DNA of 64,000 bases from an uncultured Chloroflexia bacterium (lineage in GTDB: Bacteria; Chloroflexota; Limnocylindria; Limnocylindrales; CSP1-4): assembly GCA_963835335.1 (NCBI GenBank), contig CAWIFB010000006.1, positions 72,084-136,083 on the forward strand, in the 5' to 3' direction. The translations under genes were made by a program, and so were the position numbers. Position 1 is the first letter of the stretch. Every line of letters begins with the position of its first letter. This document shows positions 14,921-45,971 of this stretch, piece by piece. The notes below the pieces were generated by a model, which made no database searches, had not been told where the DNA came from, and saw only the letters and a program-made list of their open reading frames with translations.

Positions 14921-16067
14921 TCAGGCGGCGGGCACCTCGACGGCGACCTCCGATGCTCCACCCGTGGATCCACGACGGACCCACCAGCTGGACTCGAGCC
15001 GCACCGTGTACCGCGACAGGTAGCTGGTCAGGACCACGGCGGCCGCCATCGCCAGCAGCACCGGTCCGAGCTCGAGCGCGCGGAAGCCGACCAGCCCGGC
15101 GCCCCAGCCGACGATCACCCAGTGCGTGAAGTACATCGCGATGACCCGGTGGCTCCAGCCGTAGACGATGCCCAGGTGCCGGTCCACGCGCTGATGCCGG
15201 GTCACCCAGTCGCACAGGGCAAGCCAGAGCAGGATGATGCCGAAGATCGGGACCGCGAACGAGAGCGGCTGGCGCCAGTAGGTGTAGACGTCGAACCCGG
15301 GGCGCTGGATGAGGAGCAGGACGCCGCCGATCACGAGCAGCACCAGCCCGATCCGGGCGCCTTGGCGGAACACGCCGCTCCGGTCGCGGCTCCGGGCGAT
15401 GACGTCACCGAACACCGCGCCGGCGAGCGCATACGCGAGCCACGGCACCACCGCGTAGTAGACGTTGGGCGCGCCGCCGATGAACGGGGTCAGCGGGCCG
15501 TCGAGGATCGGCGTGCCGAACGTGGCGCCCTTGACGAACGGTGCCACCAGCACGAGCGCGCCCGCGAGGACGAGCCAGGTCCAGCCGGGCCGTGATCTCA
15601 CGCGGAGCACGGCGATCACCACCAGCGACAGGCCGACGACGTGGTGGAGGTCGACCGTCGTCGCGAGCCACCACTGCGTGTACGGCGCCACCTGGTCGGC
15701 GGTGATGACGCCGGTCGCCTCACCCAGCGTCGCCGGGATCACGCCCCGCAGGAAGTTGAGGACGTAGCCCAGGAACACCAGCCACAGCCCGCGGGCCACC
15801 AGCGGGCCGGCTCGGCGCCCGGGCGGCGGCGCCGAGCGAGGCGCCCATGAGGAACACGAACACGGGTGCCGCCGTCGGGCCGGCGGCGTAGCTGATCGCC
15901 TCGCCGATCGGCGTCGTCCAGGTGCCGGGCACCCCCCAGTGCCACAGGATGTGCACCAGGATCATGAACAGCACGGCCAGCCCGGCCGCCAGGTCGAAGG
16001 CCCGGACCCGCTCGCGGGCGACGATCCCCGTGACGGCGTTCAGCTCGACCGGCTGGGACGTCTCCAT
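14921..16067 (-). pseudogene. DUF1624 / heparan-alpha-glucosaminide N-acetyltransferase-like membrane acyltransferase with an apparent frameshift
   Basis: The N-part (frame of ORF 15720..16274) reads ARERVRAFDLAAGLAVLFMILVHILWHWG...PVFVFLMGASLG. The C-part (ORF 14921..15799) reads ARGLWLVFLGYVLNFLRG and continues through eight more TM helices. The frames switch around 15810-15825 (gcgcccgggcgg). The start could be ATG 16067 or 16145. Confidence 0.7.
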
Positions 16068-16927: not shown

Positions 16928-19900
16928 TCAAGGAAGCGCCTCGAGACGGATCCCTTCCAGCAGATCGATCTCGCTGGCAATGGCAACCTCCGGGGAGCCT
17001 GATGGAATCCCGGCGACGCGCATGGCCGATTCCGGGAACGCGATCACGCCCAGTGCCCGTGGCATCCGGTCAGACGCGTCAACCAGGAATGTGCCTGCCG
17101 CCAGCGCCGATTGCAGGAGGCCGGCCATGTCCCGCTCGGTGTCGGTTCGCGTCGCCACGGCACCCGGGGACGCGAGCGGGACCAGCCCACTTCCCGAATC
17201 CTCGCTGATCAGCCGGCCCGCGAACTCCGTGCCGAGCAGGTACTGCACGAAGGACCTGACCTCGGGCCGGTCACGAAGCACGACGAGCGTGTACACACGC
17301 CCACGCAGCTCGTTCGCACCTCCGGCGCGGACTGGGAGACGGACCGGGGTAAGGTCGTCGCGGATGCCTTCTTCCCACGTCGCCCGCTGATCGCCGCTCG
17401 CGTGGATCAGCCAGCACTCCGGCAGCTCGCCCGAGCCCATCTGGAGTGCCGCCCACGCCGCCGGCGTCCGAATGGCCGTCTCAGGGCCGCCGAGGACAGC
17501 GCCAGTCTGGCGGATCAGCGCGTGATAGCGGCGAAATGCAGACCCGATGGCAAGGCTGAAGCCGGTTCGCCCGGCCGCCCAGGAGTCGAATCCGGGCGCC
17601 GTCAGTACATCGAGCACGAGGTCCTCGATCAGGTCGGCGCCATAGGCCCCGTCATGCTCACCCCCAAGGAGGCCGAGACACCACGGCGCGCGACCATCCT
17701 GGATCATTCGCTCGACGAGCTGCTCCAGTGCCTCCCAGGTCGTCGGTGGCTCGTAGCCCGCGGCGGCGAACGCGTCGGCCGGGTACCACAGCAGACCGGA
17801 GACCGTCGCCGCGACCGGGGCACCGACGAGGCGCGCGGCCGTGCCGTCCGAAGCGCCGGCCGACGGCTGGACCCGGCCGAGATCGGCCAGCGGGCCCGCC
17901 TCGAGCGTCGCGAGGTCGGCCGGCGACAGGACCTCGTCCAGCGACAGAAGCAGGCCCGCACGAGCCAGGTCAGCGACGTCCCCCGAGCGAGCAAGGATGG
18001 CAACGTCTGCCTGCTCGAGCCCGGCTCGAGGATCTCCGGTGCCGTCGTCATTCGTGATGGAGATGGCACCGCCCCTGGTCGCATAGTCGGCCAACGCCCC
18101 GGCAAGATCGGCGGGCAGTTGTGAGACGACCCGCACGCCCACACCGCCGATGTTCTGGGCGACGAGATCGGTCATCGCCACCACGCCCGTGGCGGTCATG
18201 ACCCGAAGCTCCGCGTCAAACGAGCGTCGATCCGCGGCCGGACATGCCGGCTGGTGCAGGTAGGTGCGGCATTCGTCGACGGTGAGCGACCGGCCGACCG
18301 AGGTCGCGGCGAGCTCGATCAGGTCGCGGGCCGGCAGCAGATAGACGCCGCGGGCACCGTTGGGGGGCGGCGCGAGTCGCACCCCAACGGGGACGTCGCC
18401 CGACGGGTACGGGACCCGCGCCCGTTGAACGGCCCAGTGCAGCGCATCGAGCGCCTCCTCCGTGATCCACCCCCGATCGGCCGTCGCCCGCGCCGCCTCG
18501 ACGGCCAGCAGCAGGGCCAGCGTCGGATCGGTGTCGAGACGTCCGTTCGCGGCAACCGCCAGCTCGCGCGCCATGGCGATCGCTCGATCCTCGCGGGCGC
18601 CCTCGGCCTGCCGCCAGACGACGGCGAGCAACCCCGAGACCCCGATGATGCCCGCGAGGAGCACCGCCATGAGCGCCCGGAGCCGCGTCGACGCCCGGCG
18701 CTCGAGCCGGCGCTCCTGGTCGCGGCGATCGCGCTCGGCGGACTCGATCCGTCGGCGTTCGACCACGCTTGCTTCGAGCAGCTCGCGCTCAAGGCCGTCG
18801 AGGCGGATGTCGGTGGTGGCGCTCCAGGTCTCGAACAGATCGAGACGGCTGCCGGAGAGCAGGAAGCCGGGATCTCGATCCGCGGTTGCCCACTCGGTGG
18901 CCAGGGCATTCAGCCGCCCCTCCATCCAGAGGCCCTCCTCGGCCTCGTGGATCCAGCCCGCAAGTCGCGGCCAGTGCGTCAGCAGCGCTTCGTGTGCCGG
19001 CTCGACTGTCGCCTGGCTGGTGCGTGGATCTCGATCGAAGGCCACCAATCGCCATCGTCCGAAGGCTTCGAGCACGGTGTCGATGCGCTCCTGCGTTGCC
19101 TCGATCGAGCGCAGGTCGTCCACCACCACCCGGCGGGCGGCCACGGTCCGTCCTTCGCCCACCGCGACCATGCGCAGGAACAGTTGGCGGGCGACGTCGC
19201 GGGACAGTTGGTCGAGCGACGCGAACACCGCCTCCGCACGACGTCCGACGGCGCCCGCGACCCCTCCGATCGCCGCATAGGACTCGCGACTGAGCCGCTG
19301 CCCGTCCGCTCGCTCGAACAGCTCGGTGAGGGCGAACTGGAGGAGCGGGAGCGCCCCGGGTCGGTTGACGACGTCCGCCTCGAGGTCTGCTGCCAGCCCC
19401 GGCTCGAGCTCGACCCCGACGGCGGCGGCCGGCCGTGCGATCGCCCGCTCGAGCTCGTCGCGGGTCAGTGGGCTCATGACCTCGATGCCGTCCCGGACCA
19501 GCGTTCCAAGCTCGGCGCTGAGCAACGGCCGATCGAACCAATCCGCTCGCAGGGACGAGACGACGACCGGTCGTGGCCCAGGCCCCGTCAGGGCGGCGGC
19601 GATGCCGCCCAGGAACCTGGATGGTCCGGCGGGGTCCGTCGCGAGCGCGAACAGCTCCTCGAGCTGGTCGATGACGAGGAGCAGCCGGCGCGGGTCGGCG
19701 GCAGCGGCCCGTGAGAGTGTGGCTGCGACATCGATCGGCTCGGCCACCATCGCCGACCCCGGCCGCGCGTCGTTTGCGATGACATCGTCCAGCGCCCGGA
19801 GCAATGCCTCCTCCGGGCGGCTGCCAGGGAGCATCACCGCGATCCGCCACTCCTCGTGAACGGAACGTGGTGCCCGGAGCAGCGGCAGCAGCCCGGCGCG

Positions 19901-20860
19901 GATGACGCTCGACTTCCCGCTTCCGCTCGGTCCGACGAGGAGCAGCAGGCCGCCCGCCCGCGACACGACCTCGAGACGTTCGAGGAGCCTCGCCGCGAAC
20001 ATCTCGCGCCCGAAGAAGTCGCCGGCGTCCGCCTCACCAAATGGCCGCAGGCCCTTGTAGGGATTGCGTCGCCCGGACAAGGGTCGCGTGACATCGAGCG
20101 TCGCGTCCTGGCGCAGGATCGCCAGCTCGAGCGCCTGGAGCTCGGCGGAAGGGTCGATGCCCAGCTCGTCAGCGAGGAGGCGCCGACCCTCCTGGTAGAC
20201 GCGCAGCGCGTCAGCCTGGCGGCCGGCGCCATACATGGCCCGCATCAACAGGGCCCGAAGGTGCTCCCGTAACGGCTCTTCGGCCACCAGGGACTCCAGC
20301 TCGCCCGCGATCTCGCGGCCACGACCGAGCGCGAGATCCGCCTCGAAGCGATCCTCGAACGCTCGCAGCCGCAGCTCGCGCAGGCGGGCGATCTCCGGCT
20401 GCAGGAACGCGAGGTCGGCCAGGTCCGCGAACGCCTCCCCGTGCCACAGCGCCAACGCGTCGCGGATCTGCCCGGCGGCGACGGCCGGTTCGCCTGCGAG
20501 GTGCTCATGACCTTCCCGCGCCAGCCGCTCGAAGTGGGCCGCATCGATCGCGTCGGGCTCGATGCGCAGGGAGTAGCCGCCGGCCTCGGTCGCGATCAGG
20601 CCCCGGGCGTTGCCGTCGTGGTTGTCGCGGGTCCCCGACTCCAGCGCCGTCCGGAGACGCGAGACGTGGAACGCGACGCTGCCGGCGCCGCTGTCCGGCG
20701 GAGAATCGCCCCACAGCGCATCCAGGATGCGCTCGGTCGAAACGGGCTGTCCGGCATGGACGACCAGCAGCGCAAGCAAGGCGCGCTGCCGCTGGGACGC
20801 GATCGCGGTCGCCCGGCCGGCATCGACGATCTCGACGCGGCCGAGGATCCGGATCTCCAT
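16928..20860 (-). CDS. SARP/AfsR-type regulator fused to a STAND P-loop NTPase, a TM helix and a C-terminal solute-binding-protein-like domain (1310 aa)
   Basis: Winged helix (aa 1-100). BTAD (ALALWHGEAFADL...LMRAMYGAGRQADALRVYQ). NPYKGLRPFGEADAGDFFGRE. Walker A GPSGSGKSS and Walker B LLLVIDQLEE. TM helix LRALMAVLLAGIIGVSGLLAVVW (aa ~727-749). The C-terminal ~400 aa resemble a sugar SBP (LWYPADAFAAAGYEPPTTWEALEQL). Confidence 0.9.
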   Translation of the reverse strand: MEIRILGRVEIVDAGRATAIASQRQRALLALLVVHAGQPVSTERILDALWGDSPPDSGAGSVAFHVSRLRTALESGTRDNHDGNARGLIATEAGGYSLRIEPDAIDAAHFERLAREGHEHLAGEPAVAAGQIRDALALWHGEAFADLADLAFLQPEIARLRELRLRAFEDRFEADLALGRGREIAGELESLVAEEPLREHLRALLMRAMYGAGRQADALRVYQEGRRLLADELGIDPSAELQALELAILRQDATLDVTRPLSGRRNPYKGLRPFGEADAGDFFGREMFAARLLERLEVVSRAGGLLLLVGPSGSGKSSVIRAGLLPLLRAPRSVHEEWRIAVMLPGSRPEEALLRALDDVIANDARPGSAMVAEPIDVAATLSRAAAADPRRLLLVIDQLEELFALATDPAGPSRFLGGIAAALTGPGPRPVVVSSLRADWFDRPLLSAELGTLVRDGIEVMSPLTRDELERAIARPAAAVGVELEPGLAADLEADVVNRPGALPLLQFALTELFERADGQRLSRESYAAIGGVAGAVGRRAEAVFASLDQLSRDVARQLFLRMVAVGEGRTVAARRVVVDDLRSIEATQERIDTVLEAFGRWRLVAFDRDPRTSQATVEPAHEALLTHWPRLAGWIHEAEEGLWMEGRLNALATEWATADRDPGFLLSGSRLDLFETWSATTDIRLDGLERELLEASVVERRRIESAERDRRDQERRLERRASTRLRALMAVLLAGIIGVSGLLAVVWRQAEGAREDRAIAMARELAVAANGRLDTDPTLALLLAVEAARATADRGWITEEALDALHWAVQRARVPYPSGDVPVGVRLAPPPNGARGVYLLPARDLIELAATSVGRSLTVDECRTYLHQPACPAADRRSFDAELRVMTATGVVAMTDLVAQNIGGVGVRVVSQLPADLAGALADYATRGGAISITNDDGTGDPRAGLEQADVAILARSGDVADLARAGLLLSLDEVLSPADLATLEAGPLADLGRVQPSAGASDGTAARLVGAPVAATVSGLLWYPADAFAAAGYEPPTTWEALEQLVERMIQDGRAPWCLGLLGGEHDGAYGADLIEDLVLDVLTAPGFDSWAAGRTGFSLAIGSAFRRYHALIRQTGAVLGGPETAIRTPAAWAALQMGSGELPECWLIHASGDQRATWEEGIRDDLTPVRLPVRAGGANELRGRVYTLVVLRDRPEVRSFVQYLLGTEFAGRLISEDSGSGLVPLASPGAVATRTDTERDMAGLLQSALAAGTFLVDASDRMPRALGVIAFPESAMRVAGIPSGSPEVAIASEIDLLEGIRLEALP

Positions 20861-21009
20861 CCGGCCCCCTTGCTACGTGGTCCGGCGGCGTCGGTGCCCG
20901 ATGCTAGGGCGCAGGAGACGCAGTGGCTACGGCCGTCCGGCCTGCCGTATCGATGCCGCGGTCGCCAATCGGGCCCGGCATCCGGCGACCCGGCCGGGCC
21001 GCCGACACG

Positions 21010-28690: not shown

Positions 28691-29287
28691 TCAGCGGGCG
28701 ATCGGGAGCGGGAGGTGCTCTGCCAGGACGCGGAACGAGCTGTTCGCAATCTCCCCCGCGCGTGTGATGTCGAAGGTGTTGCGCTGGAGCCCCTGGTCGA
28801 CGACGAGGGTCAGCTCCACGTGGAACCCATCCGCTGTCCGGGTGAGCGAAGGCTCGATGGCCGGCGGGTCGGCCAGCAACGCGGCCTTTGCCGACTCCTC
28901 ATTGTCCGATCCCGGACGCCAGTGAAGGTCGTCGAGCGAGGTGATCACGCGAACGATGACCTGCGCACCGCGGGTGACCTCCAGGTACGTCTCGATGTAG
29001 GCGCGCGCATCGGACTCGTCGTCGAGCTGGGCGCCGGTGGCGTCCACCAGATCGGCCCATGCGTCCTGGTCCGCGCTGAGCACCCGTACCGAGCCGTCCG
29101 GCCAGACCCCGACGTACACCTGCCACGGGTGTGAACCGGTTTCGTCCCTGGCCTGCCAGACGACCGTTCCCCGGATCCCGGGGACGGCGACCGGCACAAG
29201 CTTCGCCTGCCCATCGATCACCTGGTCCCCGAGCGGCTGCCCGATGGCCATCGCCACGGCGTGTCGATCGACGTCGCCCGTCGTCAT
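28691..29287 (-). CDS. Hypothetical protein, candidate immunity partner of the upstream HExxH protein
   Basis: ATG 29287 overlaps the upstream stop (ATGA). It has no signal peptide, is acidic, and belongs to no family I recognise. The immunity role rests on genetic context only. Confidence 0.6.
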   Translation of the reverse strand: MTTGDVDRHAVAMAIGQPLGDQVIDGQAKLVPVAVPGIRGTVVWQARDETGSHPWQVYVGVWPDGSVRVLSADQDAWADLVDATGAQLDDESDARAYIETYLEVTRGAQVIVRVITSLDDLHWRPGSDNEESAKAALLADPPAIEPSLTRTADGFHVELTLVVDQGLQRNTFDITRAGEIANSSFRVLAEHLPLPIAR

Positions 29288-30337
29288 TTCTTGCCCGGCT
29301 TCTTGTGCACTTCGTCCCACTGGTTCCCGTAGAACACGGCATAGCTGTTGTGGTTGGTGGACGTCACGAATGTCCCGTCATAGAACCACTTGGTCACTTC
29401 CTCGTCACGCGCCGTCGTTCGGCAGATCCTGTTGATCTCGCCGGTGCTCATGTCGGGGTTCGCCTTCTTCAACGCGTCCCGCTTGGCGTAGAAGGCCTTC
29501 AGGTAGCGCTGCTTCAGGTCGTCGCCGATGGCCGCGCCGGTCATGTCGATCCCCAGGCCCGACGTGACGGCGAGCCCCTCGATCTGCCGGACGACGGCCT
29601 CTGCCTCATCGGCGATCGAGAGCTTGATGTACGTGGCCCGATCCAGCGTCGTGCGGTCGGCCTGCTTGCCGGACTTGTACGTGTCGGCGTGCTGCGCCTC
29701 GTGCATCAAGGTGATCGCGGCCCCGCCGATGCCCAGCGTCTTGTTGACGTAGATCTTGCCGCCCTGGTGAAACGATCCCTGGCCGCCGTACTCGTAGTCG
29801 ACGGGGATCTTCCACTTCTCGATGATCGACATCGCCCAGGTGCCCGTGTCGCTCGCCCGACACGCGTCCTCGATCGCCTTCTTCCGGGCATCTCCCTTGA
29901 GGCCCGTCCCGGTGGTCCCGGTGGTGCCCGTCCCTGGCTGGCTCGTCGCGTCCGCATCGGTCGGCCCGGCCGATGCGACGGCACGCCGTCTCGGTACCCT
30001 CTCCGGCCTCGGTCGCGGCCGGCGCCGCGGCTTCGACCGCGCCTGCCTCGCCTTCGGCCTGGCCCTCCACTTCCTGGTTCATCGTGGGGCCGGGGTGGCG
30101 TTGCACGACGGCGGTTCCCATGAGCCGCGCAACGGCGTGGTTGCCGGCGGCATGCTGGAGTTCCATCAGTGCGTTCGGCCCGTCGTGCGTGGGCAGGCTC
30201 TCGGCCGGCCCGTTGCCGGTTACGCGAGCGGCAGTGGTTGCACCATCCGCGCGATCCGCGGTGATGGCGGGGCGCGGCCTGGGCAGGAGGGTCCGATCGG
30301 GGTCGCGTCGGGCGAGCTGGCTCATGCTGCCAACCAT
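29284..30337 (-). pseudogene. Polymorphic-toxin-like protein with an apparent frameshift. It has an N-terminal LQxxAGNxAV leader (as in DUF4157-type proteins), a Gly/Thr/Ala linker and a C-terminal HExxH metallopeptidase-like domain.
   Basis: The N-part (frame of ORF 29606..30490) reads MVGSMSQLARRDP...LMELQHAAGNHAVARLMGTAVVQR...EAGEGTETA. The C-part (frame of ORF 29284..29832) reads AVASAGPTDADATSQPGTGTTGTTGTGLKGDARKKAIEDAC...ITLMHEAQHADTY...ADEAEA. The frames switch near 29980-29986. The C-domain DNA is visibly less GC-rich. Confidence 0.65.
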
Positions 30338-30703
30338 TTTCGCGCGACGACGTACCGGAGCCAGAACCCTCGGTGCACCGCGATTGCCCGAACAGGCAGA
30401 CCTCGCCGGTACGGCCCCGAGTCCGGTCGCGGCGGGTCGTGTCGCACGCGTGTCGCACGGCGTGCCGGCGTTGTCCGTGCACGGGCGCAAGGTTGATGCA
30501 ACAGGCAGCTGCGGCTCGCTGATGGCCCGTTGGCGACGGCGGGCCTACGGTTCGGGCGGCTGGTGGGCGGTCGGGTCACTCGACCAGGGTCCCCCGATCC
30601 ATCGGACCTTGAACTGCCGGCGGCAGTCGCGCAGCCACCCCGGTCGACCATTTCCCCCCGAACGAACTCGACGCGCCCACGAGGGCCGAAGGACGGAGGC
30701 GAG

Positions 30704-30883
30704 ATGCCACAGAACGCCTGGTCGCCGAAACGCGAACGACAGTACGAGCACGTCAAGGAGAGCGAGCTCGATGCCGGCCGCTCCGAGGACCGGGCCGAGG
30801 AGATCGCTGCCCGGACGGTCAACAAGGAGCGTGCCGAGAAAGGTGAGACGAAAGCGTCCCGCCGACGCGCTCACTCGAGCTGA
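30704..30883 (+). CDS. Small basic protein, similar to actinobacterial proteins often labelled plasmid-stabilization protein
   Basis: ATG 30704 follows GGACGGAGG. MPQNAWSPKRERQYEHVKESELDAGRSEDRAEEIAARTVNKERAEKGE matches a conserved small-protein family I recall. The frequent C-terminal Rho_N-like extension is absent here. Confidence 0.6.
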   Translation: MPQNAWSPKRERQYEHVKESELDAGRSEDRAEEIAARTVNKERAEKGETKASRRRAHSS

Positions 30884-42985: not shown

Positions 42986-45971
42986 TCACGCCGCGGATCC
43001 CGCATCCGGGTCCGCGGCATCGTCCTCGGCACGCGGCAGGCTGAACCCGAACTCGGAGCCGCCGCCCGGCCTGGGTCGTGCCCAGATCCGCCCGCCCATG
43101 GCAGTGATCAGGCCCCGGCAGATGTACAGGCCGATGCCCGAGCCCGCGGTCTTGCGCGCCGTCTCGGGCGACCGGTAGTAGAGCTGGAACAGGCGATCGG
43201 CCTCGTCCGCATCGATCCCGATGCCCCGGTCGAGCACGCGCACCAGCACCTCGCTTGGCGTGGCCTCGGCCGTGATGGTCACGGACGTGCCGGCCCGGCT
43301 GTACTTGGCTGCGTTGGTGATGAGGTTCCGCAGCACCTGCTCGACATAGGTCCGCTCACCCGACACGACCGGGAGGTTCAGCGGAAGGTCGGTCTCGAAC
43401 TCGATCCCGCTCCAGCGGGCGGACTCCGAGGTGATCACGGGATCGATGAGGTACTGGACGAGCAGGGGCTCGCCCTCGATCGTGATCCCCCCTTCGACCC
43501 TGCTCAGGGCGAGCAGATCCTCGACGATCCGGTACAGGCGGTCCGATTCCACCTCGATATGGCGCAGCATGGTCTCCCGCTCGTCCTCGTGGCTGCCCCG
43601 CTGGAGCACCTTCGCGTAGCCGAAGATCGTCGTGATGGGCGTCCGCAGCTCGTGCGACAGGACGCCCAGGAAGGCCTCCTGCGCCGCGGCGGCCTGGCGG
43701 GCGCGGGTCACGTCGCGGAGCACGACGATCCGGGAGGCGGCCTGGCCCCCGTCGAGCGGTGCGCCGGCAGGATCGGCCGCATAGGTCGCCACCTCGAGCC
43801 AGCGCCCGCCGCCGGGCTGGACCGTGATCGGTGGGGCGGGCCCGTCGGCGTCGTCCGCCCCGTCGGCCGCCGGACGCTCCGTCGCCGGCGATGCACTCCA
43901 CGCCCAGCCACGTCTCCAGCTCCCGGATCCGCTCGGGCACCGAGCCGTCGAGGATGTTGAACGCGGCCTCGTTGGCGAGGGTGATCCGGCCCTCCACGTC
44001 GACGACCAGCACGCCGTCTCCCATCGAGCGGATCACGGCCCGCAGCTCCGCCGCCTGTCGCCGTTCATCGCCCGCGATCCGCGCCAGGCGCGCCTGGACA
44101 TCGATGTGGTCGGTCATGTCGCGTGCCGTCAGGATCGCCGTCGGCGACCCGTCCGGGAGGATCACCTCCTGGAGCAGGACATCGACCGGTATCTGCCGGT
44201 CGCCCTGCTGGGCGAGCACATCGGTGTAGGTGAGAACCCGGCCTGGCGACGCCCGAAGGTCCGCCAGGCGCTGGCGGAACCCCGCCTCGTCGGACGAGGC
44301 GAGCAGATCGATGATGGTCCCTTGCTCGACCTCGTCGGGCTCGAGGCCGGCGAGGTCCGCGCCGCCGCGGTTCGCGTAGGTCACGCGGAAGGTCAGCGGG
44401 TCGAACATGTAGACCGCGTCGGCGCTGGCGTCGACGTTCGCCTTGAAGCGCGTCACCGCCGCGAACAGCCGGGTGCGCTCGGCGGCCACCGAGATCCGGT
44501 TCGCGACATCGCGGCCCATGGCCAGGTCGTCCGGGCCAAACGCGTCGGCCGCGCTGCTGCCCAGGACGAGCGAGCCCAGCCGGTCGCCGTGGGCGGTCAG
44601 GATCGGCGCGATCAGCGCGACCACCGTACCCAGCTCCGCCATGACGGCAACCGTCCTGGGGTCGCCGAGCCGCTCCGCCCACCCCTCGTCAAAGCGGACG
44701 ATCTGCGGTTCTGCGGTGGCGTGCTCGCCGGCGAGCGCCGCACCGAGGTCGGACTGGGTCACGACCGCGAGGTGCTCGACCGCACGCTCGGTTGCCGCCG
44801 ACGTCCCTGCGGTCGCCAGGACCTGGTGGTCCGCGTCGATCAGGCTGATCAGGCACCAGTCCGCGAGATCGGGTACGGCCTCCCGCGGCACGGACGACAC
44901 CCCGGCCGTGAAGCTCGAGGCGGACATGATCCGTTCGCTCGCGCGGGCGACGAACGTGAGCCGCACCCCGGCCCGCTCGACGGCACGGAAGGCGAGATGC
45001 TCCTGGTGCCGCGCCAGCGCCCTGTCGAGCGCCACGGCGCCCTGATCGGCGAGCCGCCCCGCCAGGTCCGCTGTTCCGTCGGCGAAGTCGCGGCGGGCCG
45101 CGAACCGGAACACGACGAGACCGACGATCCGCCCCGCGACGCCCAGGGGCAGGACGGCGATCGATCCGCCGGCCGGCGAGCCCGGCAGCCTGTACGGCGG
45201 ACTGTCCGGGTATCGCTCGGCCCACACGGCGGGATCGTCGAGAAAGATGGGCCGGCCAGTGGTCAGGGCGTCGCGCACGTGCGACCGGGGCTCCGGCGTG
45301 TACGTGCCATGTTCCGAACTGAACGGGCCGGCCGACTCGCCGGCCCCATCCGGGTAGCCCCGTGACGCAAGCACGACGAGCGCCGTGGCGTCCGGCTCGT
45401 CCGTGTCGATCCGGAACACCACGCCGGCCAGTGCGCCGAGGGCCCTCAGCCCGCGATCCAGGATCGCGTCGGCAACCTCCTCGGGTGTCGCGGCTCCCGC
45501 CAGGCTTGCTGTCACGGCCTGCAGACGTGCCAACCGTGCCCGGTCCCGCTCGGCGGCCGCTCGCCCCTGCTGCTGCACGATGAGCTGGGCCTCGCCGGCC
45601 TCGCGGGCCGCCTGCTCCTTCACGACCGCCTTGCGCAGCCGCGAGGTGATCATGGACAGCACGATGCCATTCGACACGAACACGGCAAGCTGGAGCGCGG
45701 CGAGCGACGACAGCGGCAGCAGGTGGTCGGTGTTGCTGAACAGGAGCAGGTCGGCGGCCGAGCACGCCGCGGTCGCGAGCAGGCCCCCGCTCGACCCCGC
45801 GATCCAGGCTGCCAGGATGACCGCCGAGACGTAGGTCAGGTAGCCCAGGTTGCCGCCGGTGTCAGCGTTGACCAGCCACTTCAGCGCGATCGCCAGCCCC
45901 GCCACGGCGATCGCGGCAGCGAACCGCAGGCTGTCCTCGGACGGCGACCAGCCCTCCTCGCGCCGGAGCAA
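42986..45971 (-). pseudogene. Large sensor histidine kinase (DUF4118-type membrane domain, two GAF-like segments, two PAS-like segments, HisKA, HATPase) with an apparent frameshift
   Basis: The N-part (ORF 43356..45971, TTG start) runs to ...ERIRELETWLGVECIAGDGASGG. The C-part (ORF 42986..43792 frame) reads GADDADGPAPPITVQPGGGRWLEVATYAA...FLGVLSHELRTPIT...ITNAAKYS...GSGIGLYICRGL. The frames switch at the CCCC run at 43858-43861. Confidence 0.85.

Follow-up and report, generated by a model that had tools for sequence, protein, structure and literature searches.

The toxins that most closely resemble the locus described here are the polymorphic toxins of the PVC-metallopeptidase/DUF4157 (eCIS_core) type, which are associated with extracellular contractile injection systems (eCIS). 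These proteins lack a Sec signal and have a long low-complexity linker, a domain with an HExxH motif and, occasionally, annexin repeats (PMC3482391). Here, we analyzed a stretch of 64,000 nucleotides from an uncultured Chloroflexia bacterium (contig CAWIFB010000006.1; the whole stretch is referred to as the window), in which a two-gene cassette on the minus strand shares these traits as well as the N-terminal LQxxxGNxAV...QR motif of the DUF4157/PVC toxins. Gene 1 (29284..30337, delimited by ORFs and their translations, intact homologues, and tblastn) codes for a protein with a leader, a linker, and a zincin-like domain, and gene 2 (28691..29287, an exact match to protein P0112) codes for a 198-aa acidic partner, a candidate inhibitor or immunity protein. 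Our preferred reading, to which we assign a probability of about 0.5, is that of a self-contained cassette in which a leader-tagged zinc-peptidase effector would be exported, accompanied by a cognate inhibitor/immunity partner. Unlike the DUF4157/PVC toxins, gene 1 carries no DUF4157, has HEAQHADT instead of HExxHxxQ, places the zincin at the C terminus as the sole globular domain, is not beside an injection operon, and has an obligate downstream partner, whereas many PVC-type toxins have none.

Two other groups of systems are relevant for comparison. The cargo proteins described in bioRxiv 10.64898/2026.05.27.728243 are comparable to the product of gene 1 in having an N-terminal loading region that precedes an effector domain, in some cases with a zincin domain in between, and the loading signal of AlgoCIS cargo is a disordered N-terminal region, not DUF4157. 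However, the N-terminal regions of those cargos are reported to be system specific and not conserved between systems, whereas the leader of gene 1, with a putative role in loading, is sharply conserved across hundreds of protein clusters. Toxin-immunity pairs with marker domains (MIX, LXG, and similar) are found with the type VI and type VII secretion systems (T6SS and T7SS). They follow the same logic, with an N-terminal marker on variable C termini and a small cognate gene directly downstream, but the marker is different, there are no secretion genes near the cassette, and the C terminus is fixed within the gene 1 family. Neither protein matched the PADLOC models of known anti-phage defence and toxin-antitoxin systems at an E value of ≤1.

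The alignments of 26 and then 85 homologues showed a single architecture for the gene 1 family. The leader is followed by an acidic linker that varies in length, a PGTGT stretch with almost no variation, and a C-terminal domain (C-domain) of ca. 200 aa. An initial annotation of the window, made by reading the letters and their open reading frames (ORFs), had placed both genes at these coordinates on the minus strand and had divided the first product into the same three parts, and the ORFs and the homologues agree with it on both counts. The linker (29902..30070; alignment A1) is acidic (isoelectric point [pI] of 4.05) and rich in Ala, Glu, and Gly, and it would be flexible; the annotation had described it as rich in Gly, Thr, and Ala. 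It closes with the conserved segment PGTGTTGTTGTG (29902-29937), in which the residues P, G, T, G, and T are nearly invariant.

The C-domain (29287..29901, ca. 205 aa, pI of 8.69) was modeled by AlphaFold2 with high confidence (predicted local distance difference test [pLDDT] of 91.1 and predicted template modeling score [pTM] of 0.87). The model contains two helices, three strands (57-61, 66-69, and 72-76), a helix with the HEAQH motif (residues 81-99), a helix with DEAEA (residues 111-138), and further helices. All five residues of HEAQH (29689..29703), the putative zinc-binding and catalytic motif, were invariant in 85 sequences, as were D121, E122, E124, and A125 of DEAEA (29596..29610), the candidate third zinc ligand, located in the next predicted helix 28 to 30 residues past the second His of HEAQH. 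Besides these two motifs (the second in the form D-E-x-E-A), R-D and W-F-x-D-G-T-F-x-T-S-T are also invariant. Thus, judging from the sequence and the predicted secondary structure, the domain fits a zincin layout of the gluzincin type, with the HExxH helix after a small beta-sheet and a glutamate on the following helix, as the initial annotation had suggested. We consider it a putative zinc peptidase, in which these residues would bind zinc and support proteolysis.

The best Pfam match was DUF6782 (PF20573), a putative metallopeptidase family that is itself uncharacterised and for which a literature search found no paper that mentions it. The window protein scored below its cut-off (24.1 to 24.9 bits versus 27 bits; E values of 1.4e-5 to 2.5e-5) and aligned only to the core, at positions 69-134 of the 241 in the model. 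Of the 85 family members, 82 matched DUF6782 at an E value of ≤1e-3, over its strand-plus-HExxH core, and some relatives have precomputed PF20573 hits. Peptidase_M91 (PF14891, described in Pfam as “Effector protein”), the NleD family of type III-secreted zinc proteases, is likewise a small HExxH zincin of the effector type with weak similarity over the core. Here, the score was far below the cut-off (15.3 versus 25 bits; E value of 0.026), only 3 of the 85 members matched at an E value of ≤1e-3, and the delivery system, the taxa, and the N terminus differ from those of gene 1. A Foldseek search of the domain against the PDB and BFVD gave nothing at an E value of ≤0.001, only weak, nonsignificant matches to IrrE, SprT, and metallopeptidases. 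The family profile found no match among PDB sequences, and the gene 1 protein, which has no hydrophobic segment, had no match in NCBIfam. An annexin repeat, as found in PVC-type polymorphic toxins (PMC3482391), separates the PGTGT stretch from the peptidase domain in 29 of the 85 members, distant relatives such as P0075, P0080, P0090, and P0102 (L005 10001-11125), and is missing from the window copy.

The leader (30071..30169) is bipartite, LMELQHAAGNHAVARLM followed by VVQRHPGPTMNQE, with the consensus LxxLQxxAGNxAV...VQRHxGPT; the window copy reads LMELQHAAGNHAVARLM...VVQRHPGPT. Residues Q57, G61, N62, V65, Q75, R76, and H77 were invariant in 26 homologues. We built a profile of the leader only (37 positions) and searched it against 1.84 billion protein representatives, obtaining 381 protein clusters at an E value of ≤1e-3. 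Motifs and domains were counted in the best 147 of these matches outside the peptidase family. In this set, 142 proteins had the motif [LMIVW]Q..xGN..[V], with a median start at residue 42 and a start within the first 100 residues in 139, and [VILA]QR followed within 30 residues in 114. These proteins ranged from 49 to 980 aa and had diverse C termini. The Pfam domains identified were eCIS_core (nine proteins), Peptidase_M15_4 (four), PG_binding_1 (three), and OmpA (two), with single cases of a ribonuclease, a cytidine deaminase, DUF4258, T6SS_HCP, a transglutaminase-like domain (TGL), and Aspzincin_M35, although most of the long proteins had no Pfam domain.

In the genuine eCIS_core/DUF4157 proteins, the motif is located upstream of DUF4157 and sometimes occurs again after it. 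The initial annotation had linked the LQxxAGNxAV...VVQR string to DUF4157-type proteins, and the nine eCIS_core proteins retrieved by the profile show that this link is real. Since the matches include DUF4157 proteins together with varied C termini, we conclude that the leader belongs to the world of DUF4157/PVC-type toxins as an N-terminal module that is portable (PMC3482391, PMC8213781). In other words, the conserved N-terminal module on diverse C-terminal toxin domains that characterizes polymorphic toxins is found here, across the 381 clusters. For comparison, DUF4157 is carried by 0.06% of the nontoxin proteins in eCIS-encoding genomes (PMC11297309). The motif was present in more than one copy in 31 of the 147 proteins and flanked DUF4157 on both sides in several (the repeats concern P0250, P0256, P0260, P0285, P0340, P0346, P0293, and P0335), a distribution that would suit a docking or cleavage site. 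We found no description of the motif in the literature when its strings were searched.

The tie to DUF4157 holds for the leader and not for the protein as a whole. The N-terminal LQxxxGNxAV-type motif common to DUF4157 members is present in gene 1, where it serves as a lead, being outside the Pfam definition of the domain. The reconstructed protein had no match to DUF4157/eCIS_core (PF13699) at an E value of ≤1, nor did any of the 85 family members at ≤1e-3, and the HExxHxxQ signature is absent, with a T in place of the Q. The profile-profile comparison (hhalign) of the C-domain (alignment A2) with DUF4157 gave a probability of 0.2, although the DUF4157 alignment was small (six sequences) and the sensitivity was limited accordingly. 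Given the lack of a Pfam match and the negative profile-profile comparison, the gene 1 protein is not a DUF4157 member.

A leader-only homologue search gave one weak match among the 161 candidates scored. In viral contigs, the leader alignment led to no confirmed locus, and a DNA pattern had 0 matches. A further pattern matched 24 loci, and L050 alone among these had a convincing leader; its neighbours belonged to no informative Pfam families. On a 491-kb soil contig (L054 10001-19922), two leader-bearing proteins of ca. 1,000 aa are encoded within 7 kb of each other, one followed by an ORF of 132 aa and the other by a 1,022-aa Gln_deamidase_2 protein, with an AAA_16-TPR-GerE regulator adjacent.

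The partner is acidic (pI of 4.49, versus 8.69 for the peptidase domain), so that the two proteins have complementary charges, and it has no hydrophobic segment. Its ca. 100 homologues are nearly constant in length (195 to 198 aa), and the AlphaFold2 model (pLDDT of 93.5) shows a two-lobed alpha/beta fold that is confident from about residue 4. No match was found in Pfam, NCBIfam, or PADLOC (E value of ≤1), in PDB sequence profiles, or by Foldseek, in keeping with the initial annotation, which had described the next gene as acidic, without a family, and joined to gene 1 by an ATGA overlap. In this overlap (29284..29287), the gene 2 start codon lies over the gene 1 stop codon, and an overlap of 4 nucleotides between the called genes is also seen in L001-L006 (four lineages looked up), an arrangement that in sequence terms implies translational coupling. 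The C-terminal tail of the partner, LPLPIAR (28694..28714), is strongly conserved; in 83 sequences, L192, P193, and P195 were invariant and L194, A197, and R198 nearly so. That the tail plugs the active site of the peptidase is a speculation.

The association of the two genes is obligate. The partner was found directly downstream of the peptidase in 27 of the 28 loci anchored on the peptidase, the exception being a fragmentary copy, and when metagenomes were scanned separately with the partner as the anchor, the peptidase preceded it in all 21 loci that had upstream DNA. There was no orphan partner, nor any partner paired with another toxin, in the loci examined. At the downstream position where polymorphic toxin systems have a cognate immunity gene, a partner is consistently encoded, with a putative protective role. 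Across loci, the identities of both proteins to the window copy drop together, indicating codivergence, whereas among close relatives, the partner diverges faster (78 to 83% identity versus 89 to 98% for the peptidase domain).

This faster divergence would also agree with reversed or shared roles, in which the zincin protein would have the role in processing or as an adaptor that has been put forward for DUF4157 proteins, and the 198-aa protein would be the cargo or a coeffector. DUF4157 proteins are indeed often encoded beside effectors without the domain (PMC11297309), and for one of them in Streptomyces, it has been proposed that it connects an effector encoded beside it with the spike-baseplate core (PMC13277306). 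However, the C-domain shows no similarity to DUF4157 by profile-profile alignment, the partner has neither a leader nor a disordered N terminus, and its downstream position, ATGA coupling, and opposite charge are those of the usual immunity layout. We regard this exchange of roles as distinctly improbable.

The cassette was detected in 22 of 185,579 species genomes. The hosts were Chloroflexia metagenome-assembled genomes (MAGs) (the closest, with 93 to 94% identity), Dehalococcoidia, other Chloroflexi, Nakamurella, Kribbella, Ilumatobacteraceae, and Nitriliruptorales, and the flanks of the cassette were wholly different between lineages. Given the few genomes, the spread of taxa, and the differing flanks, the cassette is a rare, horizontally scattered, self-contained pair of soil Chloroflexota and Actinomycetota. 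No second leader-bearing or peptidase ORF, that is, no spare toxin cassette, was found in the 28 loci or in the window.

On our preferred reading of an exported effector with its inhibitor, gene 1 would be translated into a cytoplasmic precursor without Sec or Tat signal, and the acidic partner would bind the basic peptidase and keep it inactive in the producer. The leader would then pass the peptidase to a nonclassical pathway of export or packaging. A contractile injection system with its genes elsewhere in the genome is the most plausible one and the leading candidate for delivery because of the domains that share the leader (DUF4157/eCIS_core, a marker of the cargo of such systems). Once in the recipient cells, the peptidase would cleave a conserved target, and the annexin repeat present in a third of the family members suggests an association with the membrane of the recipient. 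The predicted parts of the scheme are zinc binding and proteolysis, toxicity, the inhibitory action of the partner, and the route of delivery, and the assignment of this pair of hypothetical proteins as effector and inhibitor is sensible but unproven.

Several observations weigh against this reading. None of the ca. 30 window proteins scanned, which were sensors, regulators, transporters, and metabolic enzymes, belonged to a contractile-injection, T6SS, or T7SS family, in agreement with the initial annotation, which had seen no such machinery. The annotated ±10-kb flanks of four family lineages contained no genes of these systems either, and there were no injection-system genes within ±10 kb of the leader-bearing genes of L054. 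For known eCIS-associated toxins, 88% are within ten genes of the operon (PMC11297309), while neither an injection operon at a distance of up to approximately ten genes nor an adjacent DUF4157 gene was found in the window or in the flanks of the four lineages. In addition, the gene 1 protein is without DUF4157 itself, an immunity gene next to the toxin gene is lacking for many PVC-type toxins (PMC3482391), and the C terminus is fixed within the peptidase family, the whole protein being one orthologous unit. Consequently, the replacement of the C-domain between related loci that is typical of polymorphic toxins was not seen, all relatives having the same one. Finally, Foldseek gave no significant structural relative for either protein, so that even the zincin fold is deduced from motifs and the predicted secondary structure.

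As the main rival, the cassette could act inside the cell, either as a protease that is regulated by an inhibitor of its own or as a module of the toxin-antitoxin or defence type, in which the motif would be a site of docking or self-processing and not an export signal. The pair is an orphan, horizontally scattered unit in unrelated contexts, it adjoins a HipA-type module in Kribbella, and no export machinery is found nearby, all of which would be expected of such a cassette. The multiple copies of the motif (31 of the 147 proteins), in some cases on both sides of DUF4157, are also what a cleavage or docking site might look like. Nonetheless, neither protein matched PADLOC, and the partner is not of the DNA-binding antitoxin type. 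Moreover, the leader also heads peptidoglycan hydrolases and proteins with PG-binding and OmpA domains, all with a site of action outside the cytoplasm, as well as recognised toxin domains, and the annexin insertion (29/85) points to membrane targeting. Altogether, we consider an intracellular function unlikely.

A bolder version of the exported-effector reading can be put forward tentatively, and we find it possible but rather doubtful as a whole. In it, the bipartite LxxLQxxxGNxAV...[VIL]QR would be an undescribed portable signal for loading or processing, marking the cargo of contractile injection systems, or of a novel export route, even far from the machinery. The cassette would be an orphan antibacterial zinc-peptidase effector, and the partner would be an immunity protein of a new fold that blocks the active site, perhaps through its LPLPIAR tail.

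If the exported-effector reading is right, leader-tagged effectors of the DUF4157/PVC class can be encoded in orphan units of two genes, at a great distance from any injection locus, as here in Chloroflexota and Actinomycetota of soils, which have received little study. A zincin effector that has yet to be characterised and a partner fold that has no annotation would also be added. The short and sharply conserved leader could be used for finding cargo genome-wide or tested as a loading tag.

The reading frame of gene 1 is broken in the window. Translation would start at the ATG at 30337 (MVGSMSQLARR...) or at a second one at 30325, and the N-terminal part is read in one frame, LMELQHAAGNHAVARLMGTAVVQRHPGPTMNQE, followed by an Ala/Glu-rich stretch. 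Past ca. 29983, the coding signal continues in the next frame (...TSQPGTGTTGTTGTGLKGDARKK...), via LMHEAQHADTYKSG and SIADEAEAVV, to the stop codon at 29284-29286. The initial annotation had allowed for one frame change near 29980-29986, and both the DNA alignment and the plot of G+C at the third codon position (GC3) place it there. In the plot, the frame with GC3 values of 0.85 to 1.0 switches near 29960-29990. In the alignment (A8), the window copy is one base longer than five close relatives (L001 and L007-L010), at GACGGCG[T]GCC, with the extra nucleotide within 29981..29986 (T at ca. 29983 as read on the minus strand). By tblastn, residues 1-93 of the L001 orthologue matched 30337-30059, and residues 119-350 matched 29982-29287 in another frame.

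Deletion of the extra base gives ...EGTETAAVASAGP... and a product of ca. 346 to 350 aa, which is collinear with, and aligns without gaps to, intact homologues of 343 to 354 aa. The joined protein has more than 100 homologous protein clusters, the closest of which are single intact proteins (88% identity over 100% of the length). Programmed frameshifting was rejected as an explanation, given that each relative has one uninterrupted ORF and that the site lacks a slippery sequence.

The break could be real and the window copy a decaying pseudogene, given that the inserted base is missing from the five relatives and that broken copies also exist at related loci (L008, L009, and L024 have a split partner, and L028 has a fragmentary peptidase). 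However, the corrected frame is free of stop codons, with GC3 values of 0.85 to 1.0 on either side of the break. Furthermore, two unrelated conserved genes of the window are also split with respect to their L001 orthologues, a histidine kinase with GAF/PAS domains (45524-43887 / 43828-43031, break near 43830-43890) and an HGSNAT-type (HGSNAT_cat) gene (16067-15831 / 15814-14951, break near 15815-15830). The closest relatives, including other broken copies, bear MFD isolate names, and we took them as Nanopore-only MAGs of the Microflora Danica (PMC12313526). Because the two other genes are split in the same way, the break in gene 1 is most likely an indel of the (long-read) assembly with no biological meaning, the gene is probably intact in the organism, and decay of this copy seems quite unlikely.

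Two observations touch on this point. The two further split genes suggest residual indel errors across the assembly. The protein P0110 (340 aa, on a 100-kb ENA contig) contains the C-terminal quarter of the peptidase and the full partner in one chain, which is probably a further frame error at the ATGA junction and not a natural fusion.

The base composition of the C-domain was what drew attention to the locus. The lowest G+C content of any 200-nucleotide segment in the 64 kb was 0.58, at 29301 (window mean of 0.712; standard deviation of 0.034), so that the dip noted in the initial annotation is real and the deepest of the window. The counts made then by hand, ca. 53% for 29281-29400 and ca. 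62% for 29401-29520, were close to the computed values (53.3% and 62.5%), while the reference segment 28001-28060 has 71.7% and not 75%. The annotation had read the locus as carrying a swapped-in variable C-terminal domain, that is, a recently acquired foreign segment of lower G+C. However, the C-domain has a GC3 of 0.922, which is as high as in the neighbouring genes (0.84 to 0.95), and the decrease is located in the first and second codon positions (0.54 and 0.43, respectively). K, N, Y, F, I, and M make up 28.8% of the residues of the domain, compared with about 10 to 14% in most neighbouring genes, and this amino acid composition explains the dip. Besides, all relatives have the same full-length architecture, and across 22 species genomes and more than 100 protein clusters, the leader, linker, and peptidase are kept together in a single orthologous protein. 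The deduction of a swapped-in domain therefore falls, a recent foreign origin is very improbable despite the low total G+C, and the DNA of the cassette is native in its codon usage.

Other features of the window were also noted. In the divergent intergenic region of 720 nucleotides that precedes gene 1, there is a small ORF (30530-30883, plus strand; …SPKRERQYEHVKESELDAGRSEDRAEEIAARTVNKERAEKGETK…) without a Pfam match. At a distance of ca. 8 kb from the cassette, a large STAND-type regulator of 1,314 aa is encoded on the minus strand (16931-20872), with Trans_reg_C, BTAD, an nSTAND1 NTPase, and a C-terminal solute-binding domain. Finally, between 33600 and 40500, the coding frame is ambiguous by GC3 (0.75 to 0.80), with long ORFs overlapping on both strands, and genes for a glycosyltransferase and an MGH1-like glycoside hydrolase were identified in this region.

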